DNA of 64,000 bases from Gemmatimonadales bacterium (GTDB lineage Bacteria > Gemmatimonadota > Gemmatimonadetes > Gemmatimonadales > GWC2-71-9): contig DASTUF010000068.1 in the NCBI GenBank assembly GCA_035759745.1, positions 20,935 through 84,934 of the forward strand. The letters run 5' to 3'. Positions 34,719 to 64,000 of the stretch are shown piece by piece. A program made the translations under genes and the position numbers. The notes below the pieces were generated by a model. It did no database searches. It had not been told where the DNA came from and was given only the letters and a program-made list of their open reading frames with translations. How positions within the stretch are numbered: the stretch's first letter is position 1; each line of letters opens with the position of its first letter.

Positions 34719-35389
34719 GCGTCCATCCCCCGCACCACCACGGTGCCGGGAAAACGGCCGTCCAGCTCGCTGAAATGCGCGCCCTTGCGCACGAGATCCG
34801 CCGCGACCGCTTGCACCGCTCGCATATCCTCCAGAGTGGCATCTGGCCGGAAGAGATACCGGCGTCCTCCCACGATGAGCATCACGTCCCCGTCCACCGC
34901 ACGCGCCTCGGTGATGGCCCCGAACAGTCCCGGTGCGAATCGCTGCACCCGTCCCAGCAACCGGCCGGTGCCCGGATCGGCCGAGTCGGCGACCGGAAGA
35001 TCGGCCGCGGCCCGTGATGGATCATACGGCAGCACCCGGCCCGCCGAATCCATGTATGCCAGCCGCCCTCGCACCGGCACCACAGCCACCGGCAGGCGTT
35101 CGGTCACATGCAGCACCAGCGTGCCCGGCAACCGCCGTTCCGCCCGGGCCGCAGTCACGCCGGGGATGCGGAGCGCCCGCTCGGCGATAGGGTCCAGCTC
35201 ATCGAACACCGTGAACCGCTCGGGCAGGTGCAGCGAATCGAGCGCTGGGCCCGGGGCGCCGTACCGGAGCCCGACAAACTCGACTCGCCGCACCTGGAAG
35301 AACTCGATCCGCCGCCCCAGGGCCGGGAGGCCGAACCAGAGCGCTGCGCCGACCGCGACTGCCGCCGGCACCTGCCAGCGCCGCTTCAT
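34715..35389 (-). CDS. ftsQ: Cell division protein FtsQ (POTRA-containing)
   Basis: 224 aa. N-terminal TM segment (WQVPAAVAVGAALWFGL), then a POTRA-like VRRVEFVGLRY. Its position between murC and ftsA supports the call. Confidence 0.8.
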   Translation of the reverse strand: MKRRWQVPAAVAVGAALWFGLPALGRRIEFFQVRRVEFVGLRYGAPGPALDSLHLPERFTVFDELDPIAERALRIPGVTAARAERRLPGTLVLHVTERLPVAVVPVRGRLAYMDSAGRVLPYDPSRAAADLPVADSADPGTGRLLGRVQRFAPGLFGAITEARAVDGDVMLIVGGRRYLFRPDATLEDMRAVQAVAADLVRKGAHFSELDGRFPGTVVVRGMDA

Positions 35390-46394: not shown

Positions 46395-46690
46395 CAGCGG
46401 GGCCGCGTGGTGTCGGGAGCGGGCAGTGGCAGGAAGGTTATCTCGGCGCCAGTGGCCGGGCGGAGCCCCAGGCGTTCGGCGGCACGGCCGATGGCCGCGC
46501 GCCCCGCAGCTTCGTTGATGCCACGCTGCAGGTCGGCGGCCACCGCCTCGAGCGCCTCACGGTCGCTCCGGGCGTTGTCGAGCTCGCGGGCGAGCTGATA
46601 CGACCTGGTGCCGCGCGACAGGATGATCGTCGCGACCGCGAGGAACGCGAAGAGCCACAGCACCAGCCAGTGTCTACCCCTGATCTGCAT
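46394..46690 (-). CDS. ftsL: Cell division protein FtsL-like (single TM plus coiled coil)
   Basis: MQIRGRHWLVLWLFAFLAVATIILSRG..., then a coiled-coil-like region. Its position between rsmH and ftsI supports the call. The start could also be the GTG at 46720. Confidence 0.6.
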   Translation of the reverse strand: MQIRGRHWLVLWLFAFLAVATIILSRGTRSYQLARELDNARSDREALEAVAADLQRGINEAAGRAAIGRAAERLGLRPATGAEITFLPLPAPDTTRPR

Positions 46691-47591
46691 CGGCTTTCCT
46701 GAAGATCCGAAGCCGGGCACTGCGCGCCCGGGGGTTGGCCGCGATCTCGTCGTCGCCCGCGGTGATGGCCTTGTGGGGTCGAGCCCGGCCCAGCGGCTTC
46801 CGGCCGCAGGTGCAGACCGGCTGGCGCGGGGGACAGATGCAACCCCGCTCCCATTCGCGGAAAAGTGTCTTGACGAGGCGGTCCTCGCCTGAATGATAGC
46901 TGATCACGGCCAGAGAACCGCCTGGCACAAGCGCCTCGAACATCGCTGGAAGCGCCCGGGCCAGGCCACCCAGCTCGTCGTTGACTGCGATGCGGAGAGC
47001 CTGGAACAGGCGGGCGAAATCACCGGGGCCCGATCGCGGCCCCAGCACGGCACGGATCGCATTCACGAAGTCGTCGCTGATCCGGTACTCGCCTCGCGCC
47101 CGGCGGCGTACCACTTCTCGGGCGAGACGGCGCGCGCGCCGTTCGTCGCCGTACTCCCGGAACACCCGCTCCAGCTCCGGCTCAGGAGCCGCGTTGAGCA
47201 GCTCGGCTGCGGTCTCGCCGGCCCGGCTCATGCGCATGTCGAGCATGGCACCGGGCCGGAAGGTGAAGCCGCGATCCTCCTGGTCCAGCTGTGCGCTGCT
47301 GACACCGAGGTCGAGCAGGACCAAGTCGGGACGGAAGTCAGCGATGGCCTCGAGCGCGCGGTCGGCGGCGTACGGCGATTCGAGGAAGGTCACGTTGCCG
47401 CCGCCCAGCCTGGCGCCGGCACGCTGCAGTGCCGACGGGTCGCGATCAATGGCCAGCAGCGTCACTCCGCGACCGAGCAGCGCCTCGGCGTGGCCGCCGT
47501 CGCCCACGGTGGCGTCCACTACGCGCGTGGCCCCCTGCGCTGCCGCGAGGACGGCGTCGAGCAGCACCGGGACGTGATAGGCGAGGGTCAT
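46674..47591 (-). CDS. rsmH: 16S rRNA (cytosine1402-N4)-methyltransferase
   Basis: Start taken at the ATG at 47589-47591 (MTLAYHVPVLLDAVL...DATVGDGGHAEALL). Motifs DLGVSSAQLD and SYHSGEDRLVK. Confidence 0.95.
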   Translation of the reverse strand: MTLAYHVPVLLDAVLAAAQGATRVVDATVGDGGHAEALLGRGVTLLAIDRDPSALQRAGARLGGGNVTFLESPYAADRALEAIADFRPDLVLLDLGVSSAQLDQEDRGFTFRPGAMLDMRMSRAGETAAELLNAAPEPELERVFREYGDERRARRLAREVVRRRARGEYRISDDFVNAIRAVLGPRSGPGDFARLFQALRIAVNDELGGLARALPAMFEALVPGGSLAVISYHSGEDRLVKTLFREWERGCICPPRQPVCTCGRKPLGRARPHKAITAGDDEIAANPRARSARLRIFRKADADQG

Positions 47592-47608
47592 GGCAGGTCC
47601 GGGATGCT

Positions 47609-47643
47609 GGAAACACAACACCCCGTCCGGCAGGGACGGGGTG
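47609..47643 (-). terminator. Intrinsic-terminator-like hairpin downstream of tRNA-Asp, immediately upstream of rsmH
   Basis: The minus strand reads CACCCCGTCC-CTGCC-GGACGGGGTG followed by TTGTGTTTCC. This is a 10-bp perfect GC-rich stem with a 5-nt loop and a U-rich tail. Confidence 0.6.
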
Positions 47644-49946: not shown

Positions 49947-50951
49947 CTACTCACTCGGCGGGACTCGGTCAAGTTCTGCAAGGGCTTCCGGGGACGGTAT
50001 TTCCCAGCCCTCGTCGAGCGCCTCCCGGCGCGGAAGGTCCTGGCGCCGCCGGAACCAGGCTGCTGCCATCACGGCTGCCGCCATCACCACCCAGAAGCCG
50101 CCGGCCACCATCCAGGTAAGCAGCCCATAGCGTCGGCGCACGTCTCGCCGCCAGGCTGCCGCAAACTGGCCCGGGTTGAGCCCGGTGCTGCGCCGGACAG
50201 CATCGCGCCAAGGTACACCCTGCCGCAACAGCTCCAGCAGTGGAGCCAGCGACCCCGTCGGGTGCCGTCGCGCCAGGTCGAGTACGGCGCTGGTCGCCAG
50301 TGCGTACGACGCCTCGGCAGCAGCGGGCCCGGCGCGGAGCGTGGAATCAAGCTGGTCGAGCTCGGGGACTGCGCCACGGAGTACCGAGACGTTGAGCGCG
50401 AGCCCGTCGAGGCGGGACCACTCTCCCGCCGCGTACGAGGCGTATCCCTCCTCGAACCAGCGAGGCATCCGGGTGCGGACCGCACGCCGGAGCGCAAGGT
50501 GGGCCAGTTCGTGGCGCAGGGTACCCGCGGGATCGCCGGCGTCGGTGCGGATGACTATCGTCCTGCTCCCCGGCAGGGCGACGCCCGCGCCCCATGCTGG
50601 CGCCCGGCCCCCGGTCATCCGCTGCAGCGCGTCTACATCCGGCACCACGATCAGCCGAATCGGGCCCGGGTCCTGGCGCCCCAGGCCGGGCCAGGTGGCG
50701 GGCATATCCGCGATTTCGCCGAGGGTGGTGGCCAGGCTCATTTGTTCGGGCCAGGCCACCACCGTTACCTGTCCTACGATGGCAACGTCCGGCCGGCCAG
50801 GATCGGTTCCCTGCAAGCCCAGCAGGAACAGGAGTAGGGTCAGGCGGACTGACGTCGCGGTATGTCCCCTCCGCTGGCGACCAGATCCAGCATCTCCTTG
50901 CAGCGCTTGCCATGGGGGCTGAGCCGGTTGGCCCGCCAGCCCTCGCCCCAC
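49947..50951 (-). CDS. Putative zinc metallopeptidase (HExxH) with a C-terminal TM segment
   Basis: 334 aa. HELAHLAL followed 17 residues later by EEGYASY (a gluzincin-like third ligand). Hydrophobic LTLLLFLLGL near the N-terminus, and WMVAGGFWVVMAAAVMAAAW near the C-terminus. The only in-frame start upstream of the first hydrophobic segment is the GTG at 50951, which overlaps the upstream gene by 112 nt. Confidence 0.6.
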   Translation of the reverse strand: MGRGLAGQPAQPPWQALQGDAGSGRQRRGHTATSVRLTLLLFLLGLQGTDPGRPDVAIVGQVTVVAWPEQMSLATTLGEIADMPATWPGLGRQDPGPIRLIVVPDVDALQRMTGGRAPAWGAGVALPGSRTIVIRTDAGDPAGTLRHELAHLALRRAVRTRMPRWFEEGYASYAAGEWSRLDGLALNVSVLRGAVPELDQLDSTLRAGPAAAEASYALATSAVLDLARRHPTGSLAPLLELLRQGVPWRDAVRRSTGLNPGQFAAAWRRDVRRRYGLLTWMVAGGFWVVMAAAVMAAAWFRRRQDLPRREALDEGWEIPSPEALAELDRVPPSE

Positions 50952-51712
50952 GACTCGAGCGCTGCATCGCGGTCATCGGCGAGCCACTGGGCTCGCCCCA
51001 GTTCGTACCAGGCCTCGATCATGTTGGGCCCCAGCGCCAGCGTCTTCCGGAAGAAGCTCTGCGCATCGACGTACATCTCGCGCTCCAGATAGACCAGCCC
51101 GAGGTAGAAATGAGCGTATAGTGTGGCCTTGCGGTCGTTGTCCAGGCGGATGGCGCGCGAAAGGTGCTCGATGGCCTCGCCGAAGATCCGCTTCTTGAGG
51201 CAGATGTAGCCAACGTTGATCCGGGCGAGCGCGTTGGACGGCTCGCGCATGAGGACGCGGGAGAAGGTGGAGAGTGCCTCGTCGTACTGCTCCGCGTGCA
51301 TCTGGGCCCAGCCAAGGAGCGATTGGGCCTCGGTTGCGTCGGGAGAGAGCGCCAGCGCCTTCTCCAGCACCTGGATGGCCGAGGCGTACTCGCCCAGCGA
51401 AATCAGGCTCCAGCCCTTCTCGATGAAGGTGGAGGCCCCGATATGGTCGGCATGCACCGCTGGAGCCGAGCCCGGGAGTCGCGGGCCGGCGTCGGCATCC
51501 GCGGCCGCCATGGTCTGCTTGTACCCGTCCACCAGCGTTCGGATGCTCTCCTTGATCTCGCCCATCTCGACCAGCGTCGCATCCACGTCCTTGAACAGGG
51601 CGATGATGTCGCGCTTCACCGCTTCGCGATCGGCCGCGCTCGCCGTCGCGGCCAGCCGGGTCTCGATGTCGGCGTAGCGCCGGCGGAAGTCGGCTGCGGC
51701 AGGCTCGGTCAT
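50840..51712 (-). CDS. TPR-repeat protein with an N-terminal coiled-coil region
   Basis: 290 aa. TPR-like units (EYASAIQVLEKALALSPDATEAQSLLGWAQMHAEQYDEALSTFSRVLMREPSN...). Overlaps the cheW stop by 4 nt. Confidence 0.7.
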   Translation of the reverse strand: MTEPAAADFRRRYADIETRLAATASAADREAVKRDIIALFKDVDATLVEMGEIKESIRTLVDGYKQTMAAADADAGPRLPGSAPAVHADHIGASTFIEKGWSLISLGEYASAIQVLEKALALSPDATEAQSLLGWAQMHAEQYDEALSTFSRVLMREPSNALARINVGYICLKKRIFGEAIEHLSRAIRLDNDRKATLYAHFYLGLVYLEREMYVDAQSFFRKTLALGPNMIEAWYELGRAQWLADDRDAALESWGEGWRANRLSPHGKRCKEMLDLVASGGDIPRRQSA

Positions 51713-52173
51713 CGGGCCAGCCGCTCCAGCTCGACCCGCTCGGTCGAGTTGAACAATCGGCGGGCGTTGAGCAGCAGCAGCACCCGCTCGCCCACGGTGG
51801 CAATTCCGGTGATGAACTCCGCCGCCAGGCCCCTCACCATCTCTGGCGGTGCGGCGATGACGCCGGCATCCACGCGCATCACCTCGCGCACTTCGTCCAC
51901 GACGACCCCCACGCCTTCCCCACCCATGGTGATGACGACGATCCGGGTGTCGTCATCCACGGTGGCCGGCAGGCCGAGGCGCTTGCGGAGGTCCACCACC
52001 GGCAGGGCGGATCCATCGTGCTGGACCATCCCCTCGAGGAAGCCGGGAGCACCGGGCAGCGCCGACGGCTGCTGCCACCGGAGGATGCGCTCCACCTGCA
52101 GGATATCGAACGCGAACTCCTGGGTGCCGGTGCGGAACGCGACCAGCTGCACATCATCGCCCGTCATCGTCAC
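51709..52173 (-). CDS. cheW: Chemotaxis coupling protein CheW
   Basis: 154 aa. QLVAFRTGTQEFAFDILQVERIL...PGAPGFLEGMVQHDGSALPVVDLRKRLG...GVVVDEVREV, the canonical CheW pattern. Confidence 0.9.
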   Translation of the reverse strand: MTMTGDDVQLVAFRTGTQEFAFDILQVERILRWQQPSALPGAPGFLEGMVQHDGSALPVVDLRKRLGLPATVDDDTRIVVITMGGEGVGVVVDEVREVMRVDAGVIAAPPEMVRGLAAEFITGIATVGERVLLLLNARRLFNSTERVELERLAR

Positions 52174-52592
52174 AGCATTCCCTCCTCGGCCAGCCTGGCG
52201 CCGAGCAGTGAGAGGTCCAGCAGGGGGATGAGTGAGTCCTCGTACCGCAGCACCGCTCGCGACCAGGGCACTGCCCGGTCAACCGGCACCGCCATCGGGT
52301 CGCCCTCGATCACCAGGTCGGCGTGATCCACCTCGAGGCAGATTCGGCGGCCGTCGGCGTTCAGCACCACGGCCATGGGCGCCGTCGCGGGTTCGGCTCC
52401 GCCGGGCGCCAGCATCCGGGCGAGCGACAACACCGGCACCAACTGGCCCCGGAAGGTCGCGACGCCGACCAGCGACGCCTCTCGGGCCGGGACCGGCGCG
52501 ACGCTGCCGGCGTCCGCCACCAGCTCGAGCTCGCGCACGGGAAGCCCGAAGGCACGGCCACCCGCATGGACCAGGAGGAACGATTCACTCAC
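52170..52592 (-). CDS. CheW-like domain protein (second, divergent)
   Basis: 140 aa. [21 protein letters not shown]...[27 protein letters not shown]... Confidence 0.75.
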
Positions 52593-53668
52593 GCGGCCGC
52601 CATGCGGCTGAGCCGCTCGGCGAGAAACTCGCCGATCCCGGTGATCGACAACTGCACGTCAGCGCCGCCGGCGACCCGGGCGGCGTTGGGCATGCCGTAC
52701 ACTACCGACGTCTCGCGGTCCTGGGCCACGCCAAGTCCGCCCGCTTCACGGACGGCGCGCATGCCTTCCGCACCATCCTTGCCGATTCCGGTCAGCACCA
52801 CCGCGATGGCGTGCCGTCCATAGCTGGCGGCGACACTGCGGAACAGCGGATCCGCTGCGGGGCGCACTCCCCAGACCGGCGCCGAGCGGTCGAGCAGGAG
52901 CGCCGGGCCGTCGCTCCGGCGCGCCACCGTCATATGGTAGTCACCAGGCGCCACGTATGCCGTGTCCTCCAGCAGCGGGGTCGCGTGCTCGGCTTCCACC
53001 ACCCGAACCATGCTCTGCGCGGCGAGCCGCTCGGCGAGGGTGCGGGTGAACCGGGGTGGCATGTGCTGCACGATGAGCACCGCGGCGCCCAGGCCCGTGG
53101 GCAGCCGAGGCACCACCTCCATAAGGGCGCGGGGCCCGCCGGTAGAGGCAGCGATCGCTACCACCCGGCGAGCGCGGTCCGGCAGGACGCCAAAACCGCC
53201 CGACTGCATCGGCGGCCGATGGGGGCGCGCGAGCGGGGCCAGGCGGAAGAGTTCGGCATGCTGGGCCGCGCGCAGCGCCGTGAGCACCCGCTGCCCCAGC
53301 CGCTCGACATTCTCCCGGCTCCGTCCCTCATCCTTGGCGACGAGGTCAACGGCACCGAGTTCAAGCGCCCGAATGGCACCGGCGGTGCCCGGCCCCGCGT
53401 ACGCGCTGACCACCACCACCGGCCGGGGGGCTTCGGACATGATGTACCCGATGGCAGCGAGCCCGTCGAGCTCCGGCATCTCGAGGTCCATCAGCACCAG
53501 GTCCGGCGCGAGCGCGTGCACCTTCTCGATCGCGTCCTGGCCGTTCCGCGCGGTGCCCGCGACGGTGAAGTCGCCCGACTGCTGCACCGCCTCCGCCAGC
53601 AGCCGGCGAAAGAACGGGCTGTCGTCGACGATCAGGACCGTGCGGGGGCTAGAGTTCGCGGTTGCCAT
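52589..53668 (-). CDS. cheB: Chemotaxis response regulator protein-glutamate methylesterase CheB
   Basis: 359 aa. Receiver domain ([14 protein letters not shown]...[14 protein letters not shown]), then the methylesterase domain ([26 protein letters not shown]). Confidence 0.95.
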
Positions 53669-54134
53669 GCGCCACCGAAGAGACTATCACGCTCCCGTCC
53701 GCAATGGTGAATGTTACCGTCCGGCCGAAGTCACCGCCTACCGCCTCGCCCATGATCGGAATCTCGTGCTGCAGCAGCACGGTGCGGGTAGCGACCAGAT
53801 TGCGCTCGCCCATCTGGATGGTCCCGGGTGACGCCAGGTTGGCGAACATGCTCGCCCCACCGGCGAGCCGGGCCTGGATCCGGCGGCGGTCGGCGCCGAG
53901 CTCGGTCATCGCGGCGAGCATCGCCGGGATCGCGGTCTGCGGCACCCGCGCCGGGCGATGCGTGGTGGATCGTGCCAGCGCCGGCGTCGGGAGCAGCACA
54001 TGCGCCAGGCCGCCCACGCGCGACACCGCATCGTGCAGCACGATGGCCACGCAGCTCCCCAGGCCGACCGTGACCAGCGTGGTGCCGGCGGTCGCGGCGC
54101 GAAGTTCGGCCACGCGCACGAAGAGCTTGCTCAC
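53649..54134 (-). CDS. cheD: Chemoreceptor glutamine deamidase CheD
   Basis: 161 aa. [14 protein letters not shown]...GLAHVLLP...KLAGGASMF-type pattern ([10 protein letters not shown] here). Confidence 0.9.
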
Positions 54135-54949
54135 GCGGCCCGCCGGTAGATGCGCTCGCGGGTGTCGATCAGGGTGAGCCGTTCGCGGGCGCTGCCGAGC
54201 AGGGTTTCCACTTTCCCCAGTACCAGCAGTCCCCCGGGCGAGAGGTGACCGGCAAAGGTCTCGAACAGACGCTCCTGCATCGGCCGATCGAAATAGATGA
54301 CGACATTGCGGCAGCAGATGAGATCGTACACCGGCCGCAGCGGCTGCTCGCGGGCGAGGTCAAGCCGGGTCACATGCACCAGCCGCCGAAGTTCGGCTCG
54401 GACCTGTCGGCCGGTCGGTGTCTCGACGGTCCACCGCGTCACGAAGGCAGGTGGCGTCTCCTGGAATGCCTCGGCCCGGTACTCACCAGCTGCGGCGCGC
54501 TCCAGCGACGCGCGGTCGACATCGGTGGCGTCAATCTCCAGCCGCCCCAGCCAGTCGGCGTGCCCCGCGTTCGCCGCCAGCTCGGCGACGATCATCGCGA
54601 TGGTGTATGGCTCTTCCCCCGATGCGCAGCCCGCGCTCCACACCCGCAGGGCGCCCTCGCGCCCCGACCACAATGCCGGCAGCGGACCGGTGCGAAGTGC
54701 GTCCCAGGTCTCCGGGTTCCGGTAGAAGCGGGTGACATTGATGGTGAGGGCATCCTGCAACCGGTGCAGCTCGTCCGCGTTCCGGTCCAGGAAGTCGAGA
54801 TACTCGTCGTAGCTGGCCGCACCGCAGGCGCGCATCCGCACGGCGATGCGCCGGCGGAGGCACTTGTCCTTGTACACCTCGAGGGACATGCCCGACGCGG
54901 CGGAGAGGCGGCGGGTGAGCCGCTCGAACTCGACATCGCGGTCGGTCAC
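54131..54949 (-). CDS. cheR: Chemotaxis protein-glutamate O-methyltransferase CheR
   Basis: 272 aa. Motifs TINVTRFYRNPETWDAL, RVWSAGCASGEEPYTIAM and LICCRNVVIYFD. Confidence 0.95.
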   Translation of the reverse strand: MTDRDVEFERLTRRLSAASGMSLEVYKDKCLRRRIAVRMRACGAASYDEYLDFLDRNADELHRLQDALTINVTRFYRNPETWDALRTGPLPALWSGREGALRVWSAGCASGEEPYTIAMIVAELAANAGHADWLGRLEIDATDVDRASLERAAAGEYRAEAFQETPPAFVTRWTVETPTGRQVRAELRRLVHVTRLDLAREQPLRPVYDLICCRNVVIYFDRPMQERLFETFAGHLSPGGLLVLGKVETLLGSARERLTLIDTRERIYRRAA

Positions 54950-56565
54950 GAGGCAGCATCCAGCAGGTCGAGATTGGCACGGGCCAGCTGATGGGCCGGG
55001 TTGAGTTCGGTGGCCCGGAGCCAGCGTTCGCGGGCGCGCACCGTCTCGCGCCGCTTGAAGGCGATGTTGCCCAGCTTGAAGTAGACGTCGTCGCCCAGGT
55101 CCGGCGCGAGCTTCAGCGCCCGCTCGTACGCGTCGGACGCCTCATCGTAGCGGCCCGAGCGATAGCAGATGTCGGCGAGGTTCTTCCACAGCTGCGGCAA
55201 GGCTGGCTCATCCTCGAGCGCGGCGCGCAGCAGGCGTTCCGCCTCCTCGACATGGCCGCCGGCCTCCAGCAATACAGCCAGCGCGTTCCTGAGGATGGCA
55301 CTGCCCGGATGGGCCTCGACTCCGGCGCGGGCGGTCTCGCGTGCGGCGTCGGACCGGTCCGCAACCGCATGCGCCAACGAGGCGGCCCAGAACCAGACGG
55401 CCGGCACCGGGCGCTGTCCCAGGAGCTCCCGGGCGCGCTGCAGCCGCTCCAGCGCCTGGGCATGGTCACCGCGCTTGAGGGCAATGATGCCCCAGCCCAG
55501 CTGGATGCGCGGCTCGTCCCGGGCCCGGGCCGCCGCATCGGCATAGGCGGCCTCGGCCTCCTCCAGCCGGTCGAGACGTTCGAGCGCGTAGGCCAGGTTG
55601 TGAAGCGCCGCGGGCCGGGGGCCTCCCTTCTCGATCACCTCGCGCAGGATGTCGACCGCATCGGTCCAGCGCGCCTGGCACAGCGCGATCAGCCCCAGGT
55701 GAAAGGGCGCAGCGGCCTCAGAGGGGCGCAGGTCGGCCACCCGCCGGAACTCGCGTTCGGCTTCGTCCAGCATTCCGGTGCGGAAGAAGGCCACGCCGAG
55801 GTTGCGGTGCTCTTCGACCCTCGCATCGGTGGCACGCGGCGCGGACGACGCGGTCGATGAGCCGACCCGGTGCGCGAAGCCGGCGGTGATGAGGCCGTAC
55901 AGGGCCTTGCCGGTCTCGAACTCCACCAGGCCCGACTCCTCCATGACCTGCCGGACATCGCGGGTGCCATCGAGCAGCGGCAGTATCTGGCTCTGCGCGG
56001 CGCTCAACGTGACATCCGACTCGGCCATCCGGTCGGGCTCGACCCGGAACTGCAAGTCAAAGGACGGAATCTTCCGCGTGATCAGTTCCCACTCGTCCAC
56101 CCGTCGGGCTCCTTCGAGCAGCAGGCTCTCCGGGTTGATGGACACGAGGAAGTCCTCGCGTTCGGGCCGCACGCCGGCTTCGAAGTTGAAGGTCCCGCTG
56201 TTCCAGGTGAAGAGGAAATACACCGCCTCCTCGATCTGGACCCGCATGTAGTCCTCGAGCTCCTGGCGAGTGAGCGCGCCTGCTTCCACCAGCAGCTCGC
56301 CGATCTTCTGCTCCGGGGACTGCGCCTGCGCGTCCACGGCCCGCTGCAGCACCTCCGGCGCGAGCCGGCCGCTTCGCACCAGCAGGTCACCCAGGCGGTC
56401 GCGCCGGTTGACGATCGAGGCGTAGATCAGCCGGCCCTCATCGAAGTAGATGTAGCCGAAGTTCTGGCGATCGGCGATCGACAGGCATCCCGAGCGGCGC
56501 CCCAGCGTGAGCAGCTGGATGACGTCCGGCAAGCTGGCTTCCTTGAGGCTGCCCTTGATGGCCAT
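54946..56565 (-). CDS. PATAN/DUF4388-domain protein with a helical insert and a C-terminal TPR array
   Basis: Start at the ATG at 56563-56565 ([50 protein letters not shown]...), abutting the upstream stop. The G.L...SL.DV.QLL...SG.L...G.IYF..G pattern is the DUF4388 signature as I recall it. The C-terminal ~300 aa are TPR repeats. Confidence 0.75.
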   Translation of the reverse strand: MAIKGSLKEASLPDVIQLLTLGRRSGCLSIADRQNFGYIYFDEGRLIYASIVNRRDRLGDLLVRSGRLAPEVLQRAVDAQAQSPEQKIGELLVEAGALTRQELEDYMRVQIEEAVYFLFTWNSGTFNFEAGVRPEREDFLVSINPESLLLEGARRVDEWELITRKIPSFDLQFRVEPDRMAESDVTLSAAQSQILPLLDGTRDVRQVMEESGLVEFETGKALYGLITAGFAHRVGSSTASSAPRATDARVEEHRNLGVAFFRTGMLDEAEREFRRVADLRPSEAAAPFHLGLIALCQARWTDAVDILREVIEKGGPRPAALHNLAYALERLDRLEEAEAAYADAAARARDEPRIQLGWGIIALKRGDHAQALERLQRARELLGQRPVPAVWFWAASLAHAVADRSDAARETARAGVEAHPGSAILRNALAVLLEAGGHVEEAERLLRAALEDEPALPQLWKNLADICYRSGRYDEASDAYERALKLAPDLGDDVYFKLGNIAFKRRETVRARERWLRATELNPAHQLARANLDLLDAAS

Positions 56566-58550
56566 CAGCGCCACTCCTCGATCAGGCGCGCCGGCACCTC
56601 GGGCCACTCCCAGACCATCTTCTCCCGGCTGCGTATGCCACCGGCCACCAGCGGCGTGACGCCATTGGTGCGGGGCTGCACCGTGCGACGGGCGGCGCCG
56701 GTGGAGGAGCCATCGAGCACCTCACGCGCCAGCACCGCGCTCGCTGCCACACCCTTCGCCTCGGCTGCCTGAAGTACGCGCTGGACCGTGCCAAGCGCCG
56801 CGCGGAACGACTCGGCCGGGCGGCTGCCGATAACCCCCGGCAGCTCGGGGTCCACCTGCTCGAGCCGGGCCGACAGGTGTCGCTCGGCAACGCGCTGGCG
56901 CAGGTCGCGGTCCGGCTGCGGCAACTCGACCACCAGGCCCCCCTCGAACCGGGTCAGCAGCCGAGGCGCCATGCCGGACAGCTCGGCCAGCGGCACGCCG
57001 GTGGTGAACACCATCTGCCGGCCGTGGTCATGGAACTCGTTGAACAGCAGGAAGAGTTCCTCCTGCGAGCGTTCCTTGTCCGCGAGCAGGTGGACATCGT
57101 CGATCAGCAGCGCATCGGCCCGGCGCCAGCGCGCCCGCCAGCGGGGGACCGCGTCCTGGTCGATCGCCGCGATCAGCTCCTCCACGAATTCGTGCGCCCC
57201 AACGCACGCGACCGTTAATCCCGCGGCCGCAAGCGCGTTGCCCACGCCATGCAGGACATGGGTCTTGCCATTGCCGCTGGCGGCGCTGATCAGCAGCGGG
57301 TTGTAGCGGGTGCCGGGCTCGGCCGCGACCGCGCGTGCGGCGCGCACCGCCACACGATTGGCCGGGCTTTCGAGCAGATCATCGAGCAGCCAGTGGGGTG
57401 ACGGCGGCGAGGGCGGTTCGAGGCCCTCGCGCGCACGCTCCAGCAGGGAGGCGGCGGCCTCGACCCGGTCCGGGTCCCGCAGCGCCTGATCGCCAGCGAG
57501 GTCGGGTGCCACCCGCTCGAGGTCCTCCGCGATCTGCTGCAGCCGCCTCACGTCCGTCGCGAATGCGGCGAGCGCTCCGTCCGGATCCTGCGGCAGCGCG
57601 CCATTGTCCAGCAGTTTCTCGAGCCGGGTGGTGCGGAAGCCTTCGCCGCTCCAGCGCAGCACCGCTTCGGCCACGCGCGACCGCCACGACTCGACCTGCT
57701 GCGTCACCGTGCTCGCGATCTCCTGCAGGAAGTCGGTGAACTCATCCGTCCCGCCTTCCGCATCGTCGGCCGGCGCGCCTCCGCCCGCCGTGCCCTCGAT
57801 AGCCTCGCCGGCCCGGCTCGCAGCGACATCCGCGATGCCCGCGAGCTCGGCCCGCGCCTCCGCCACCGAGAGCGGCCGGCCCGCGGCGGCCTGGGCGGCG
57901 CTGACCCGGTTCAAGGCGCCGAGCAGCTCGCGCACATTGTCGAGCGGGATCTCCGCAGCGGCCTCGAGCACGCCCGGCGCGAGCTCAAGGCCGCGCGCCT
58001 CGGCCTTGCGGCGGAGGATGGCTACGCGGGTTTCGTAGTCCGGCGCGCCGACGTCCACCACCAGCCCGCCACCGAAGCGGCGCAGCAGCCGGTCGTCCAG
58101 CGCCTCGATGTCGGCCGGGGGACGGTCGCTGGCGAGCACGATCTGGCCGCCCGAGGCCTGCATCGCATCCACCACGCGCAGCAACTCGCTCTGCATTTCG
58201 CGGCGACGCGCCAGTGCCTGGACGTCGTCCAGCAGCAGCAGGCCAAGCTCGGAGTAGCGACGGCGGTAGGCATCACCCTGCCCTGCGGTGATGGCCGCAT
58301 GGAAAGCCTCGACGAAGTCGTCGAGTGTCAGGTAGCCGACGGCGAGGCCGGGATTGATGGCGAGTGCCGAGTGGCCGATGGCCGTGAGCAGGTGCGTCTT
58401 GCCCAGCCCCGGTGTGGCATAAATGAAGAGGGGGTTGTAGACCGCACCGGGAGACTCCGCCACGGCACGGGCAGCGGTGGCCGCCAGGCGGTTGCCGGAG
58501 CCGACCACGAACTCCTCGAAGCGGAGCCCCGGATGCAGCTTCTGGTTCAC
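56565..58550 (-). CDS. Tandem DnaA-type AAA+ ATPase (two DnaA domain-III-like modules; no DnaA domains I, II or IV)
   Basis: 661 aa with a GTG start overlapping the mglA stop (GTGA).
- Module 1: [81 protein letters not shown].
- Module 2: [61 protein letters not shown].
No DNA-binding HTH region was seen. Confidence 0.8.
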
Positions 58551-59146
58551 GCCGGCGCCCCTGCCGCGAGGCGACGAAGCACCGACTCGGAGATGCCCTT
58601 CAGCGTCTCGAAGACGCCGCTCCCGTGCAGGGCATCGGCGCCGAAGCTTTGCACGCCGCGGAAGTTCAGCGCCTCATCGAGCGCGTCGCTGGAGAGCACC
58701 AGGTCGGCCGGCAGGTCCTGCTTGTTGTACTGCAGCACGACCGGGAGGTCACGCACATCGACGCCCTGTTCCAGCAGGTTTTCCTGGAGATTCTGGAGGC
58801 TCTCGAGATTGTCGTCGAAGCGGCGGGCCTGGCTGTCGGCCACGAACACCACCCCGTCGGCTCCCTGGAGCACCAGCTTCCGGGTGGCGTTGTAGTAGCT
58901 CTGGCCCGGCACGGTGTACAGCTGGAACCTGGTGGTGAACCCCGAGATCGAGCCGAGGTCGAGGGGCAGGAAATCGAAGAAGAGCGTGCGGTCGCCGTGG
59001 GTCGCGAGCGAGACCATGCGGCCACGCCGGTTCTCCGGCACCCGCCCGAAGATGTACTGCAAGTTGGTCGTCTTGCCGGACCTGCCCGGGCCGTAATAGA
59101 CGATCTTGCAGGTGATCTCGCGGGTGGTGAAGTTGACGAGCGACAT
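58547..59146 (-). CDS. mglA: MglA-family small Ras-like GTPase
   Basis: ATG at 59144-59146 gives [33 protein letters not shown]...[11 protein letters not shown]...[10 protein letters not shown]...VLQYNKQDL. This is near-collinear with Myxococcus MglA as I remember it (P-loop, intrinsic Arg in [13 protein letters not shown], NKxD). Confidence 0.9.
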
Positions 59147-59147
59147 G

Positions 59148-59609
59148 TCAGCGTCCAAAGAGCGCGTGGAGGCTGGCGTTCAGCTCCCGCTCGAAGTTCT
59201 CGGCCAGCACCGGCGCCTGGGTGGTCTCGGGCGGCGCGACGGCCACAAGTTCGCGCACCAGTTCGTCCCAGAAGAGCTGCACCAGCCCGACGCTGGTCTC
59301 GCTGCCGAATACGACCAGGCCGACCCACCGGCCACGTGGCGTGTCGAATCCCGACAGCAGCATGCCCTGCTCACTGCCCTGGTGCACCAGCGCACCGAAA
59401 CCCCGCTGGTCCATGAGCCGGGCCACCTCGGTGGTCGAGGCGACGATGCCAGCACCGAGCGCCGCCGCCGCCATCACGTCCAGCGAGCGGGTGAATCCGT
59501 GCTGGGCCACCACCTGCCCCGCCGACGTCATCAACAGCACCACACGGGCTTCGCTCTCCGCGAGGAAGTGTTCCAGCGGCGGACCCACCCAGGGCTCGAG
59601 GGTGCGCAT
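59148..59609 (-). CDS. mglB: Roadblock/LC7-domain protein, MglB-like (putative GAP of MglA)
   Basis: Internal ATG at 59607-59609 of track ORF 59148..60209 gives 153 aa: [39 protein letters not shown]...[12 protein letters not shown]..., a Roadblock fold pattern. It sits directly upstream of mglA, as in the mglBA operon. Confidence 0.75.
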
Positions 59610-59959
59610 CAGCCGAGCCCCTGCGCGACGTCGAGCATTTCCAGCCGGGCCAGGCCCAGGTTGGCATCGGCCTGGGTCACTGCGACCACCAGCAGTTCTG
59701 CGGCGGCGGCAGGCACGGCGAGCAGGTTGCCGCGCTCCGCATGCAGGTGCAGCACCCGTGGTGCCTCCAGCCCGGCTTCGGCGGTGGTGCGCGCCAGTCG
59801 ACCCGCAAGACTCGCCGCCAGCGCTGCGACTGCCCGGCCATCCACGCCATCCATCAGCGACTCGGCCACAACCAGTCCGTCGGCCATGGAGACGAGCATC
59901 GCGCCCCGCACGCCGCGCACCGCGCTGATACGCCCAAGTTCGGTTTCGTAGCGACTCAC
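59609..59959 (-). CDS. Roadblock/LC7-domain protein (second paralog)
   Basis: GTG at 59957-59959 overlaps the upstream stop (GTGA). 116 aa: VSRYETELGRISAVRGVRGAMLVSMADGLVVAESL...AALAASLAGRL...NLLAVPAAAAELLVVAVTQADANLG. Confidence 0.7.
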   Translation of the reverse strand: MSRYETELGRISAVRGVRGAMLVSMADGLVVAESLMDGVDGRAVAALAASLAGRLARTTAEAGLEAPRVLHLHAERGNLLAVPAAAAELLVVAVTQADANLGLARLEMLDVAQGLG

Positions 59960-60852
59960 GAGGCCCGCTCCAGCCAGCGTCGCGCAGCAGCAGCGGCGCG
60001 ATCGGCGATGACGGCCAGCCGGCCGGCGGTGACGCTCGCATCGCGCGCCGCGAGGAGTACAGTGTCGGGTGATGGCGCCGCGAGGTGCAGGTTGCCAGGC
60101 CCGCACTCGGCCGACAATCGCTGCCAGTTGCCGAGATCCAGCAGGCGCGCGGCCCGCACCGCCTCTCGCGACACACCGGAGAGGTGCGCCGCCACAGCAT
60201 CGGCGACATCGCGACCGTCGCGATCGCGCAGGCCGCCGCCCAACCGCAGCCCGTTCACGTCGAGCAGCAGGAGACCGTCACGGGCGCCCTCGAATCCCTC
60301 GAACAGTTCTGACTCGGCCGGCAAGTCGTCGTCGGCCTCCTCCTCGAGCTCGAACGGCAGCCCTTTGCGCTGCCGGGGCATCGGCGCGCGGGGCTCGCTG
60401 GAGCGGGCGGACACGGGCGCCGGCGTCTCCTCGGCGCCCGTGGGGGCCGCACCATCCAGCGTGGCGCGCACGGTGGCGATTGCCCGGGCGAGTCCCGGCT
60501 CGTCGCTGCGTGCGCGGGCCATCTCCAGGTGACGCAGCGCGCGGGGCAGGTCACCCGCACGGTAGTAGAGGAATCCGAGGCCCTTGTGGGCGCCGAGATG
60601 GCTGGGATCCCGCTGCAACGCATCCATCCACGCATCGAACGCCGCTTCACCGTCGCCGAGGTCGCTATGGATCCTGGCCGCAAGATCGCGGGCATCGGCG
60701 AGTTCGGGATAACGCGCCATGCCGGACTCGGCCACACGCAGTGCGGCCTGGAACTGTCCCCGCCGGCGCAGAGTCTCCCCCAGGTCGAGGAAGACCAGGC
60801 TCGCCGGATCGGCAACCAGTTCCGCGGTCATGGCGCGGATCGATTCACTCAT
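59956..60852 (-). CDS. TPR N-terminal domain fused to a C-terminal Roadblock/LC7-like domain
   Basis: 298 aa. TPR units at the N-terminus, an acidic linker (PFELEEEADDDLPAESELFEGFE), then GLLLLDVNGLRLGGG...VADAVAAHLSGVSREAVRAARLLDLG..., which resembles Roadblock. The Roadblock assignment is by pattern only. Confidence 0.6.
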   Translation of the reverse strand: MSESIRAMTAELVADPASLVFLDLGETLRRRGQFQAALRVAESGMARYPELADARDLAARIHSDLGDGEAAFDAWMDALQRDPSHLGAHKGLGFLYYRAGDLPRALRHLEMARARSDEPGLARAIATVRATLDGAAPTGAEETPAPVSARSSEPRAPMPRQRKGLPFELEEEADDDLPAESELFEGFEGARDGLLLLDVNGLRLGGGLRDRDGRDVADAVAAHLSGVSREAVRAARLLDLGNWQRLSAECGPGNLHLAAPSPDTVLLAARDASVTAGRLAVIADRAAAAARRWLERAS

Positions 60853-61999
60853 GCGCGTTCCTCATGGCTCGGCCCAGCATCCGCGCCGCCGCGCGGAGTT
60901 CGCTGACCCAGCCCCCCTTCGCATCTTCATCGGCAGGCCGCATCGGCAGCCTGCTCCACGCATCCCAACTGTCCACCGCTTCCTCGAAGCGTCCGTCGCC
61001 GGCCAGCGCCATGCCAAGCAGGCGGCGCGAAGTGGCATCGCCGGGCGCCAGCCGAAGCGCCTGCTCGAGGGCCGCCGCGGCATCGGCCGGCCGGCCGGCC
61101 GCGAGCAGCACCCGTCCCAGCATCAGGTACAGCGACGGGTGCTCGCCCACCGACATGGCAGCGGCCTCCTGCACGGCTGCAAGGGCCTGCTGGGTATTGT
61201 CGGCGATCAGGTACGCTTCCGCCCGCGCCAGCAGGTCGGCCACGTCGCCGCTCTCCGCCTCGGGTTCCGGCAGTGCCCTGGGATCGTCGACCGCCACCAC
61301 GCCTGCGGCGGCGAGGCCGAACAGGGTCCGCGCCACCTCGAACTCGGAACGCGCGACGTGCTCGGCCACCGCGCGGATGTTGCGCTCGCCATCCACCGCC
61401 GCGAGCACTTCCCATTCGGCCGGGAGCAGGTCCATCGGTGCGGCATCGTGCTCGTCCGGCGCAATCAGGCGGGGCACCACATCGAGGTGGGGAATGCGGG
61501 CCTCGATCCGGCTCCACTCGTCGATGCGCCGGGCCGCTTCCATCAGCAGCGCCTCGGTGGGAATGCGCACCACCGCCTGCGCCGGCACATCCTCCAACGG
61601 CGCTTCGCTGAATGAGAAGTGGCCTTCGGCCCAGTTCATCAGCTCGAAGATCACTTCCTCCACCTGCCCCCGGACGTGGCGGTCCAGGTCGCGCTGGCTG
61701 ATGGCACCGATGCTCACCAGCACCTCACCCAGCCGGCGCCCGTCGCCGGTGGCCTGCATGTCGCGAGCCCGCGCGAGGTCCGAGTCGGAAACCTTGCCGA
61801 CCCGCAGCAGCAGCGCGCCGAGCGGGTGCGGATTGCTCTCGATCTCGGCGGCGACCACCTTGCCGCCATCGAAGTACACGGTGCCGCCATTCTGTCGCAG
61901 CTCGGAGCGCACCCGCAGGATGCCCGACTTCCGCGCCAGGTCGAGCAGCTGGAACACATCGTGAATGCCGAGCTCGCGAAGCGGTCCCTCGATCGGCAT
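60845..61999 (-). CDS. PATAN/DUF4388-domain protein with a helical insert and a C-terminal TPR region (second paralog)
   Basis: 384 aa. MPIEGPLRELGIHDVFQLLDLARKSGILRVRSELRQNGGTVYFDGGKVVAAE..., then a winged-helix-like region and TPR-like helices. Confidence 0.75.
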   Translation of the reverse strand: MPIEGPLRELGIHDVFQLLDLARKSGILRVRSELRQNGGTVYFDGGKVVAAEIESNPHPLGALLLRVGKVSDSDLARARDMQATGDGRRLGEVLVSIGAISQRDLDRHVRGQVEEVIFELMNWAEGHFSFSEAPLEDVPAQAVVRIPTEALLMEAARRIDEWSRIEARIPHLDVVPRLIAPDEHDAAPMDLLPAEWEVLAAVDGERNIRAVAEHVARSEFEVARTLFGLAAAGVVAVDDPRALPEPEAESGDVADLLARAEAYLIADNTQQALAAVQEAAAMSVGEHPSLYLMLGRVLLAAGRPADAAAALEQALRLAPGDATSRRLLGMALAGDGRFEEAVDSWDAWSRLPMRPADEDAKGGWVSELRAAARMLGRAMRNAHE

Positions 62000-62002
62000 G
62001 GC

Positions 62003-63934
62003 TCAGGCCTCCCGATCAGCGAGGATGTGCTCGAGGTCGCGGGCTGAACGCGCACGCGAGCGCGCCTCGCCCGCCAGTGCCCCGCCCGGCTCCAGCTGGA
62101 TCACGCGGTCCCAGGCTTCGACCGCCGCACGAAACTGGCGCACCCGGGCCAGCGCCGCCGCGCGATGGAAGAGCGCCAGCACATGGTCGGGCACGAAACG
62201 GAGCACCCGATCGAACGCCTCGAGCGCCGGGCCGGTGCGACCGTCGTCGAGCAGCGCGCGCCCCAGCAGCGCGAGGGCGTCGAAGTCGTAGGGATCGGTC
62301 TCGAGCACCGGCACCAGGAATGACACCGCTGCCCTGGGCGACTCGGTGCGGCGCAGCAGGTCGCCCAGCGACAGCTGCGCGGGCGAGTAGGTCGGCAGCA
62401 GCTGCAACGAGCGCTCGTAGGCCGCTCGCGCTGCGGTAAAGTTCTCCCGGGTCTCCTCCAGCCCGCCCAGTTCGCGCCACACCTGCACCAGGCCGGCATC
62501 GATCCGCAACGCCAGCTGGCATGCCTCGAGCGCGGCTTCGGTGTCGCCCATGCGCGCAGCGATGGTGGCCTGCAGCTGATAGAGCTCCGGCCGTCCCGGC
62601 GCCACTTCCAGCGCATGGCGAACCAGCCGAAGCGCGCTTCGCTCGTCATCGACCGCGAGATGCGCCCGGGCGCAGGCCACCAGCGCCTCCGGATCACGCG
62701 GCCGCAGCCGCTCCAGGCGCGCGGCGAGTTCCACGGCCTCCGCTCCCCGATCGAGCGCGGCCAGCGACCGGATCTCACCCAGCAGCGCGTCGCCGTCGTC
62801 GGGAAGGGCCGCCCGTGCATCGCGGAATCGCTCCAGTGCCTCCCCGTGGAGCCCGCGCCGGGCAAAGATGTCGCCCATGAGGGTTGCCACCCGCCCTGGA
62901 TCGGCACCGCGGGCACGCGCGCGCCCAAGTTCTGCCGTCGCCAGCTCGAGCAGTCCCTTGGCGACATAGTCGCGCGCCAGCGCGAGCGGGTCGTCGGCCG
63001 ACACCTCGGCCGATGCGGGCCGGGCCGCGGGCGCGAGGTCAGTGAACAACTCCTCCAGCGCTTCGGGGTCAAACGCAAACTCGCCTGCCAGCTGCTCTCC
63101 CCCGACGTCGCCCGCCAATTCCGGCATCACGCCGATGGTGGGATCCTCGTACTGCAAGTCGAGCGCGAGCGTGTACTTCTGGGCGACATAGAACGGCTCC
63201 AGCTCGAGTGCCCGGCGGGTCTCCCGCAGCGCGCCGTCGTAGTCGCCGACCTGGCTCAGGGTGAAGCTCAGGTTGTAATGCGCGGACGCGAGGTCGCCGT
63301 CCGCCTCGACCGCGCGCTGGAACGCGGTGCGTGCTTCGGCGTAGCGCTGCAGCTCCATGAGCACGAGACCGACGCCGTTCCAGGCCAGGGCATTCGCCGG
63401 CTGGTCGGCCAGCACCCCACGGTAGTGCTCCAGCGCCGCCTGCAGTTCGTGGCGCTGGAGGTGGAGCAACGCGACGTTGAGCCGCACCGCGGGCGGCAGC
63501 CGCCCGGCCTGCAGCGCCCGACGGAAGGTCGCCAGCGCGAGGTCGCCCTCGCCGTGCGCGGCATGCAGCACGGCCAGGTTGTTCCACGCGATGGCATAGC
63601 CGGGATCCAGATCCACCGCGCGCAGGTATGACTCCTCGGCCGCCTCGCGCTGGCCCAGCTGCTGGAGGCAGACGCCGCGCTCGCTCCAGAGCTTGGGGGA
63701 ATCGGGATCCTGGCGCGTCAGTTCGTCGTAGCGCTCCAGGGCGGAGGGCAGTTCGCGCCGGAGCAGCTCGACCTCGGCCATGGCCTGCAGCACCAGACGG
63801 CGGTCCTCGCCCGCGTCCAGCGCGAGCCGATACTCGCGCAGCGCCTCGACCAGGTAGCCCTTCTGGCGGAAGGCGAGCCCGAGGTTGAAGTGCGCGAGTG
63901 CCGCATCCGGCACCGGCAGCGGCGCGTCACCCAC
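62003..63934 (-). CDS. Large TPR-repeat protein (about 14+ TPR units); possibly 5'-incomplete
   Basis: 643 aa from the GTG at 63934. TPR consensus is repeated throughout (AHFNLGLAFRQKGYLVEALREYRLALD..., AWNNLAVLHAAHGE..., AHYNLSFTLSQVGDYDGALRETRRALELEP...). The frame stays open upstream to position 64000, so the true start may lie outside the window. Confidence 0.7.
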   Translation of the reverse strand: MGDAPLPVPDAALAHFNLGLAFRQKGYLVEALREYRLALDAGEDRRLVLQAMAEVELLRRELPSALERYDELTRQDPDSPKLWSERGVCLQQLGQREAAEESYLRAVDLDPGYAIAWNNLAVLHAAHGEGDLALATFRRALQAGRLPPAVRLNVALLHLQRHELQAALEHYRGVLADQPANALAWNGVGLVLMELQRYAEARTAFQRAVEADGDLASAHYNLSFTLSQVGDYDGALRETRRALELEPFYVAQKYTLALDLQYEDPTIGVMPELAGDVGGEQLAGEFAFDPEALEELFTDLAPAARPASAEVSADDPLALARDYVAKGLLELATAELGRARARGADPGRVATLMGDIFARRGLHGEALERFRDARAALPDDGDALLGEIRSLAALDRGAEAVELAARLERLRPRDPEALVACARAHLAVDDERSALRLVRHALEVAPGRPELYQLQATIAARMGDTEAALEACQLALRIDAGLVQVWRELGGLEETRENFTAARAAYERSLQLLPTYSPAQLSLGDLLRRTESPRAAVSFLVPVLETDPYDFDALALLGRALLDDGRTGPALEAFDRVLRFVPDHVLALFHRAAALARVRQFRAAVEAWDRVIQLEPGGALAGEARSRARSARDLEHILADREA

Positions 63935-64000
63935 CGAGTCGCTGTCGTCGCGCGGGTGGGACAGTGAGCCGAGCGACAGGTTGGCTTGCGCACGGCTGAG

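Follow-up and report, generated by a model that had tools for sequence, protein, structure and literature searches.

An MshEN_N-type four-helix bundle nested in the PATAN domain of a Gemmatimonadales PATAN-TPR protein, and its predicted cyclic di-GMP site

A 64,000-nucleotide stretch of a Gemmatimonadales contig (DASTUF010000068.1; the whole stretch is called the window here) encodes on its minus strand two paralogs that join a PATAN domain to tetratricopeptide repeats (TPR), PATAN-TPR proteins 1 and 2. An earlier reading of the letters without database searches (the sequence-only reading) had noticed in protein 2 a tandem pair of motifs like those of MshEN domains. The locus therefore raises the question of what this motif pair is, and whether it is a receptor site for cyclic di-GMP (c-di-GMP). 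As to the former, we find that residues 59–112, with the last helix running to about residue 121, make up a four-helix bundle of MshEN_N type, nested in the PATAN-domain loop between strands 47–53 and 127–132, and that this insert is homologous to the 53-residue c-di-GMP-binding module of the MshE, PilF and PilB ATPases; homology and nesting are settled. As to the latter, judging from sequence and predicted structure, we put the probability that protein 2 binds c-di-GMP at about 0.5.

Translated on the minus strand, positions 61664–61825 read PLGALLLRVGKVSDSDLARARDMQ-ATGDGR-RLGEVLVSIGAISQRDLDRHVRGQ, residues 59–112 of protein 2; the plus strand of the same segment translates to an unrelated sequence. 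The features concerned are the following.

60845..61999, minus strand: coding sequence of PATAN-TPR protein 2, 384 amino acids plus stop (a listed open reading frame, ORF, with a PF14332 match and TPR families)
61754..61825, minus strand: motif 1, residues 59–82, PLGALLLRVGKVSDSDLARARDMQ, helices α1 and α2 of the nested bundle (60–66 and 72–83)
61736..61753, minus strand: spacer, residues 83–88, ATGDGR, 6 residues
61664..61735, minus strand: motif 2, residues 89–112, RLGEVLVSIGAISQRDLDRHVRGQ, helices α3 and α4 (90–96 and 102–121)
56236..56397, minus strand: motif pair of PATAN-TPR protein 1, RLGDLLVRSGRLAPEVLQRAVDAQ-AQSPEQ-KIGELLVEAGALTRQELEDYMRVQ, a core-pattern match (see below) within the coding sequence 54946–56565

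The published motif, RLGxx(L/V/I)(L/V/I)xxG(L/V/I)(L/V/I)xxxxLxxxLxxQ, comes in two copies that are 5 residues apart (Wang et al. 2016, PMC5013675). Motif 2 fits this consensus at every defined position and matches both the strict pattern, which as used here also permits A at position 11, and the relaxed one; its A11 and V21 are conservative. Motif 1 is off consensus at positions 1 (P59), 11 (K69) and 21 (R79). The relaxed motif permits P at position 1, K11 and R21 are non-hydrophobic, and motif 1 fails both patterns, fitting only an 8-position core, x-h-G-xx-h-h-xx-G-x-h-xxxx-h-xxxxxx-Q. The strict and relaxed patterns catch motif 2 of both PATAN proteins and motif 1 of neither. The residue numbers, listed matches and 6-residue spacer of the sequence-only reading were all correct, as were the deviations it named in motif 1 at positions 1 and 21; the one at position 11 had been overlooked.

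The spacer departs from the five residues of the published motif and of Vibrio cholerae MshE, having 6 residues in protein 2 and, among its orthologs in 80 species-level Gemmatimonadota genomes (close orthologs, with a mean pairwise identity of 79%), 6 in 25 genomes and 7 in 55. Accepted MshEN domains vary in the same respect, the aligned Geobacter PilB (PDB 6olj/5tsg) having 7 residues, and the spacers of diverse PATAN inserts are mostly 5–8 residues long.

A motif made up mostly of Leu, Gly and hydrophobic residues should be common in a genome of 70% G+C that is rich in Ala, Leu, Gly and Arg codons, and an ordinary amphipathic helical hairpin might fit a loose version of it by chance. However, the core pattern has exactly four matches in the six frames of the 64 kb, and these are two tandem pairs, one per PATAN protein, both with 6-residue spacers, whereas composition-preserving residue shuffles of the same frames gave 0.003 matches per window and no tandem pair. 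The claim that the same insert stands at the same place in both paralogs is borne out by these pairs.

Searches for solved relatives lead to the same family. With the 65-residue insert as the query against all PDB sequences (phmmer), significant matches were solely MshEN-type (PilF, E = 2.5e-5; MshE, 5HTL, 3.3e-4; Geobacter PilB, 3e-3), in a register that pairs P59, Q82, R89 and Q112 with R9, Q32, R38 and Q61 of MshE. A profile built from 49 diverse PATAN inserts found exclusively MshEN/GSPII domains in the PDB, with significant E-values from 2e-34 to 1e-7 (PilF 2e-34, Geobacter PilB 3e-16, MshE 2e-14). A structure predicted for residues 1–179 with AlphaFold2 (AF2) from 60 aligned sequences (predicted local distance difference test score 88.9, predicted template modeling score 0.82) consists of a strand, a helix, three strands, the four helices 60–66, 72–83, 90–96 and 102–121, a strand and a long helix. 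When this model was compared with the PDB by Foldseek, the top six matches were all c-di-GMP-bound MshE or PilF GSPII-B. The superpositions overall had a root-mean-square deviation (rmsd) of 0.9–1.0 Å over 51–55 alignment columns with 33–38% identity; the best, on 5HTL, had an rmsd of 0.9 Å, 55 columns, 38% identity and a probability of 1.00, and that on 8PDK an rmsd of 1.0 Å. The PATAN core had no significant solved relative in the same comparison. Shuffles, profile E-values down to 2e-34 and the 0.9 Å superposition on MshE together refute a chance resemblance, to which we give next to no credence.

A curated NCBIfam model, NF053729 'c-di-GMP_motif' (cyclic di-GMP-binding domain-containing protein, MshE-related; 53 positions, cutoff 38 bits), matches both PATAN-TPR proteins and, at E <= 1e-9, which is about the level of that cutoff, 40 of the 49 diverse PATAN inserts. 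The Pfam family T2SSE_N/MshEN, PF05157, had no match on either PATAN protein at E <= 1, which is not evidence against the motif finding; together with the PATAN strand 127–132 that directly follows the bundle, it indicates the MshEN_N-only type.

The surrounding domain is likewise clear. PF14332 (DUF4388/PATAN) matches protein 2 with 107.8 bits (cutoff 25), residues 4–163 corresponding to profile positions 1–122; that 160 residues fall on a 122-position profile points to an insertion, which accounts for the ~38 extra residues. This insertion lies in the loop after the third consecutive strand, as described for PATAN. Helix α4 continues into the conserved strand Q-[IV]-E-E-x-[VI]-[FY]-x-L-x-x-W-x-x-G-x-F-x-F and then a long helix, and W123 is kept in 91 of 94 diverse PATAN domains. 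The two parts of the PATAN domain that enclose the motif pair are these.

61826..61999, minus strand: N-terminal part of PATAN, residues 1–58, a strand, a helix and three strands (AF2: strand 3–6, helix 12–21, strands 26–32, 37–44 and 47–53)
61490..61663, minus strand: C-terminal part of PATAN, residues 113–170 (AF2: helix 102–121, strand 127–132, helix 148–168)

Is the insert, then, a special acquisition of this operon? The sequence-only reading had taken its shared position in both paralogs as an argument for function here, an argument that falls away, because the insert is the ancestral α-helical PATAN insertion and is shared by every one of the 101 full-length, diverse PATAN domains retrieved and aligned; independent insertion in the two paralogs is rejected on the same count. 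According to Han et al. (bioRxiv 10.1101/2021.06.11.447907), PATAN was described with an 'alpha-helical insertion' in 2006 by Makarova, Koonin, Haselkorn and Galperin, and in their summary of that work the insertion consists of two 'alpha-clip' repeats that also occur at the start of the ATPases of type II secretion systems and type IV pili (T4P). Han et al. further mention that DUF4388 and GspE_N occur together in some proteins. The MshEN paper (Wang et al. 2016, PMC5013675) aligns, in its supplement, proteins of Myxococcus and Stigmatella in which MshEN_N begins around residue 50–60; MXAN_1145, MXAN_3211 and MXAN_4739, which are among those aligned, have the PATAN signature F/W-x-x-G-x-Y/F-x-F after the bundle. 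MXAN_3211 has been named a PATAN protein (PMC11580455), and MXAN_1145 and MXAN_4739 look like PATAN proteins, judged from the segment after the insert. With the 2006 description, the Myxococcus PATAN proteins among the MshEN proteins and the curated NCBIfam model, the homology is not new. The link between the PATAN insertion and c-di-GMP is implicit in the prior literature and not new here either, and we found no open-access paper in which a c-di-GMP site in the PATAN insertion is explicitly stated or tested.

Protein 2 has orthologs in all 80 Gemmatimonadota loci, and its copy in the window is 98% identical to a contig of a metagenome-assembled genome (JAICQR010000006). At the positions that correspond to ligand contacts of MshE, the orthologs carry the following residues.

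Contact position 59: P in 80/80
Contact position 60: L in 79/80
Contact position 61: G in 80/80
Contact position 75: L in 77/80
Contact position 79: R in 79/80
Contact position 82: Q in 79/80
Contact position 89: R in 78/80
Contact position 90: L in 76/80
Contact position 91: G in 80/80
Contact position 105: L or V in 80/80
Contact position 109: V in 69/80
Contact position 112: Q in 80/80

Ten of the 12 contact positions are canonical or conservative in protein 2. Mean conservation among the orthologs is 0.96 at the contact positions, 0.79 at the other positions of the insert and 0.85 in the PATAN core, and K69, position 11 of motif 1, is kept in 76/80. Both Gly-3 and both Gln-24 residues are retained (79–80 of the 80 genomes). 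Across greater distances, in 94 PATAN domains that share less than 60% identity with the query, conservation within the insert coincides exactly with the motif positions, and the x positions are variable. At least 10 of the 12 contact positions are kept in 80 of 103 PATAN domains (the 101 diverse ones plus the two window proteins), while the other 23 lose several together, a degenerate tail that is overestimated, since several of its inserts appear frame-shifted in metagenome gene calls. Among the 94 diverse inserts, R or K at position 11 of motif 1 is a hallmark (68/94), where ATPase-linked MshEN domains are hydrophobic. Three giant proteins among the representative sequences (P0140, P0141 and P0147; 1455–1492 residues) each contain five PATAN stretches, the first inserts of which have degenerate contact sets.

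The most likely function of the bundle would be to bind one monomeric c-di-GMP in the manner of MshEN. Each guanine would be flanked on one side by the residue of motif position 1 and on the other by a hydrophobic triad, with its Hoogsteen edge read by backbone NH groups at the Gly of xLG and the ribose-phosphate held by the two terminal Gln residues. With residues assigned to pockets from the published text on the MshE complex and not from coordinates, the Gua2 pocket of protein 2 is canonical (R89, G91, L60, L105, V109 and Q112), and the Gua1 pocket, which in MshE is lined by both R9 and L29, is remodeled, with P59 for Arg and R79 for Leu. This combination of one canonical and one remodeled half-site is kept throughout the order.

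Mutational data on MshE favor binding. There, G11L abolishes binding, G40I weakens it 72-fold and Q32A/Q61A about 10-fold; loss of Gly-3 or Gln-24 being harmful, the retention of both pairs in protein 2 counts for a functional site. Position 1 is forgiving in PilF GSPII-B, which tolerates R, K or L (its K167L variant has a dissociation constant [KD] of 2 nM), and the relaxed motif as published (Wang et al. 2016, PMC5013675) admits Pro at this position. In PilF GSPII-A, an N-terminal extension of helix α1 blocks binding; such an extension is unlikely in the model of protein 2, given P57 and P59. The genomic context also favors binding, Gemmatimonas being recorded with GGDEF, EAL and HD-GYP enzymes and no PilZ domain (Wang et al. 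2016, Supplementary Table 5).

Several observations weigh on the other side. NF053729 scores protein 2 at 32.1 bits (E = 7.4e-8, positions 1–48 of 53), under the curated 38-bit cutoff. R79 takes the place of L29 of MshE, where L29A binds 28-fold and L29V 4-fold more weakly, and K69 the place of I19, and the substitutions given for XpsE, a non-binder, include L29R and I19R. R at position 21 of motif 1 also persists in relatives with otherwise degenerate sites, so R79 may have another role. PilF GSPII-A with all six consensus positions restored still does not bind, neighboring structure obstructing the site; a full consensus is thus insufficient for binding, and by analogy the PATAN core could obstruct the nested site of protein 2. 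Surface residues of the insert outside the contact set are near-invariant too (R66, D74, R77, D80, D86, R88, R103, R107 and R110), which is compatible with a protein interface as much as with a ligand site. A literature search found no binding data for any explicitly PATAN-nested insert, and a pattern scan of the window recognized no gene for c-di-GMP turnover; a GGDEF pattern match at +35746 was rejected, since it falls on the strand opposite a Mur ligase gene and carries no Pfam domain.

[quoted passage not shown] The conserved charged surface beyond the contact positions would suit such a role, as would the near-fixation of P59, K69 and R79 in the 80 genomes, alongside the Arg at the places of MshE L29 and I19 in XpsE, and the NCBIfam scores, with protein 2 under and protein 1 over the cutoff. 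Non-binding MshEN-like domains are common, XpsE, PilF GSPII-A and Deinococcus geothermalis PilB_3 being examples, and cyanobacterial PATAN domains bind PilB1 and PilC, their insert having been proposed to mimic the PilB N-terminus (Han et al., bioRxiv 10.1101/2021.06.11.447907). However, both Gly-3 and both Gln-24 residues, which are most often lost in non-binders, are (nearly) invariant, the Gua2 half-site is fully canonical, and more than half of the sequences in an alignment of 60 (A1: the query, paralog 1 and 58 protein 2 orthologs), namely 35/60, reach E <= 1e-9 against NF053729.

The Gua1 pocket itself admits a further explanation, which we consider very unlikely: the Arg would have moved from position 1 to position 21, and the site would prefer another cyclic dinucleotide, such as 3',3'-cyclic GMP-AMP (cGAMP), or hold c-di-GMP in a different pose. 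Both deviating contact residues, P59 and R79, do fall in this one pocket, as far as can be told from the published description of the MshE complex, and the pair is (nearly) invariant in the 80 genomes. In the same description, positions 1 and 21 are the sole ones at which the side chains of the MshE half-sites themselves differ, and MshEN_N binds cGAMP weakly. Such a switch is nonetheless pure inference and has no precedent in the MshEN family; the guanine-specific readout of the Hoogsteen edge, through the backbone NH of G61 and the next residue, is kept, and relatives with degenerate sites have R at position 21 as well.

For c-di-GMP binding by protein 2, the remodeled Gua1 pocket leads us to expect a lower affinity or an altered specificity relative to protein 1. 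In protein 1, NF053729 matches all 53 positions (1–53) with 38.9 bits, just over the cutoff. Among its orthologs, in 62 genomes, each of the ten contact positions with R/K, L, G, L and Q is retained in 58 or more. Their pattern is R-L-G-L-(V/I)-Q and (K/R)-L-G-L-(M/I)-Q, each position in at least 58/62, with V or I at position 21 of motif 1 and M or I at that of motif 2; the spacer is 6 residues in 62/62. We give c-di-GMP binding by protein 1 a somewhat higher probability than binding by protein 2. The 'two c-di-GMP-responsive nodes' that the sequence-only reading suggested for the operon are a prediction.

If c-di-GMP is bound, the site would be at the junction of the bundle and the PATAN core, at the bundle end that faces the core, and because of this position its occupancy would alter how the PATAN-TPR scaffold engages partners in the Che/MglA/Roadblock module. 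The level of the messenger would thereby be coupled to the GTPase module.

How does this arrangement compare with known systems? Like the MshEN_N of V. cholerae MshE, Thermus thermophilus PilF GSPII-B/C and PilB (PMC5013675; 5HTL, 8PDK), protein 2 has two tandem 24-residue motifs in a four-helix bundle, its predicted model deviating by 0.9–1.0 Å rmsd from ligand-bound structures at 34–38% identity over aligned columns; it keeps Gly-3 and Gln-24 in both motifs, and its motif 2 is fully consensus. Unlike these ATPases, it has the bundle nested in PATAN and not at a free N-terminus, and it lacks the MshEN_C/T2SSE_N1 subdomain as well as an ATPase. It also differs in motif 1, with P, K and R at positions 1, 11 and 21, and in staying below the NF053729 cutoff. 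Another related system is Bd2402 of Bdellovibrio bacteriovorus (REC, MshEN_N, 'UNK'), an experimental c-di-GMP binder with a KD of 0.04 µM (Wang 2016, Supplementary Table 6; 0.4 µM in the footnote), which likewise has MshEN_N without an ATPase, in the middle of a signaling protein. Unlike PATAN, however, the segment after its insert is without the W and G signature; when the Bd2402 fragment given in the supplement was used as a query to identify it as a PATAN protein, the search had no result, the probable reason being optical character recognition errors or the shortness of the fragment.

As a PATAN protein, protein 2 resembles PatA, PixG, PixE and MXAN_3211 in its strong Pfam match and in having two helical-hairpin repeats at the same loop, and it shares with known PATAN proteins a neighborhood of MglA, Roadblock/MglB and Che genes. 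That PATAN genes are associated with genes for MglA and MglB has been documented before (PMC4316618). Unlike in PATAN proteins partnered with REC domains, the partners in protein 2 are a winged-helix-like domain and TPR, the order being PATAN/DUF4388, the winged-helix-like domain and TPR repeats, with Pfam TPR families (TPR_16, TPR_2 and related) at residues 250–350.

61286..61477, minus strand: winged-helix-like middle domain, residues ~175–238 (AF2, full-length: strand 175–178, helices 193–201, 208–215 and 219–231, strand 235–238)
60851..61249, minus strand: C-terminal TPR domain, residues 251–383, seven helices (Pfam TPR families; AF2 helices 251–383)

The middle domain scores 23.6 bits against Pfam PF25212 (HVO_A0114), under the cutoff of 27.6, and this family is recorded for some orthologs.

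Unlike in known PATAN systems, the host belongs to the Gemmatimonadales, and the two paralogs flank a block of MglA, three Roadblock genes and a tandem DnaA-type ATPase (56565..60852, minus strand), composed as follows.

59956-60852, minus strand: TPR+Roadblock gene (Pfam/NCBIfam)
about 59609-59950, minus strand: Roadblock gene (Pfam/NCBIfam)
59148-59570, minus strand: MglB-like Roadblock gene (Pfam/NCBIfam)
58547-59158, minus strand: gene for an MglA-like GTPase (Pfam/NCBIfam)
56565-58550, minus strand: gene for a tandem DnaA-type AAA+ protein (Pfam/NCBIfam)

Protein 2 is part of a tightly packed operon, as indicated by a GGGAGG Shine-Dalgarno-like site before its ATG, the 3 nt between the stop of the upstream TPR gene and this ATG, and the overlap of its own stop codon with the ATG of the next gene. 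The gene order, large TPR, PATAN-TPR 2, TPR+Roadblock, Roadblock, MglB-like Roadblock, MglA, tandem DnaA-type ATPase, PATAN-TPR 1, CheR, CheD and CheB, is constant across the 80 Gemmatimonadota genomes wherever the contig is long enough. Downstream in the window (50840-54949, minus strand) lie CheR, CheD, CheB, two CheW and a TPR gene, and CheA and CheC/CheX precede the cluster in a 98%-identical sister contig, L001 (4828-9998, plus strand); the PATAN/MglA block is inside a chemotaxis-like operon. No gene for a methyl-accepting chemotaxis protein was seen in the annotated stretches of the window and L001.

The neighboring genes have features of their own. The upstream TPR ORF (62003-64000, minus strand; 643 residues) is probably cut by the end of the window, its counterpart in L001 (7128-9998) having 956 residues. 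The three Roadblock/LC7 genes stand in a row upstream of mglA (59148-60852, minus strand); the first is fused to TPR repeats, and the third alone resembles MglB (NF052242, E = 6.5e-7, far under its cutoff). For MglA, the listed ORF begins with a TTG at 59158, a start that would give mglA an 11-nt overlap with the Roadblock gene before it; the likelier start is an ATG in frame, four codons downstream (MSLVNF...). The tandem DnaA-type protein, of 661 residues, has two PF00308 matches and matches TIGR00362 at E = 2e-126 in two stretches, with no match to the DnaA C-terminal DNA-binding domain. Its gene lies between mglA and PATAN-TPR 1 in all 71 Gemmatimonadota loci where mglA was found, and we found no description of a role for a DnaA-like ATPase in an MglA module. 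Elsewhere in the window lie genes for cell wall and division: the Mur ligase gene mentioned above (Pfam-supported) occupies 35386-36762 on the minus strand, and ORFs resembling a penicillin-binding transpeptidase and an RsmH-like methyltransferase, judged from their translations alone, lie at about 44424-47621, also on the minus strand.

Could the two paralogs be matched nucleotide sensors, one with a canonical and one with a half-remodeled site, that gate a Che-to-MglA polarity module in a phylum lacking PilZ? We regard this as an unlikely reading; if true, a PATAN-nested MshEN_N would for the first time have been demonstrated to work as a second-messenger switch for a small-GTPase system. 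More broadly, a PATAN search returned 9,504 representative clusters at E <= 0.001, and should the nested bundles bind c-di-GMP, PATAN proteins would form a large class of c-di-GMP effectors, for the most part unrecognized, linking this messenger directly to MglA/Roadblock polarity modules and Che-like pathways. In Gemmatimonadota, MshEN is listed as the sole known type of protein receptor. To the question of binding the locus contributes a clean test: within a single conserved operon, one paralog has a canonical and the other a half-remodeled site, a natural pair that suits the testing of PATAN insertions as c-di-GMP receptors.

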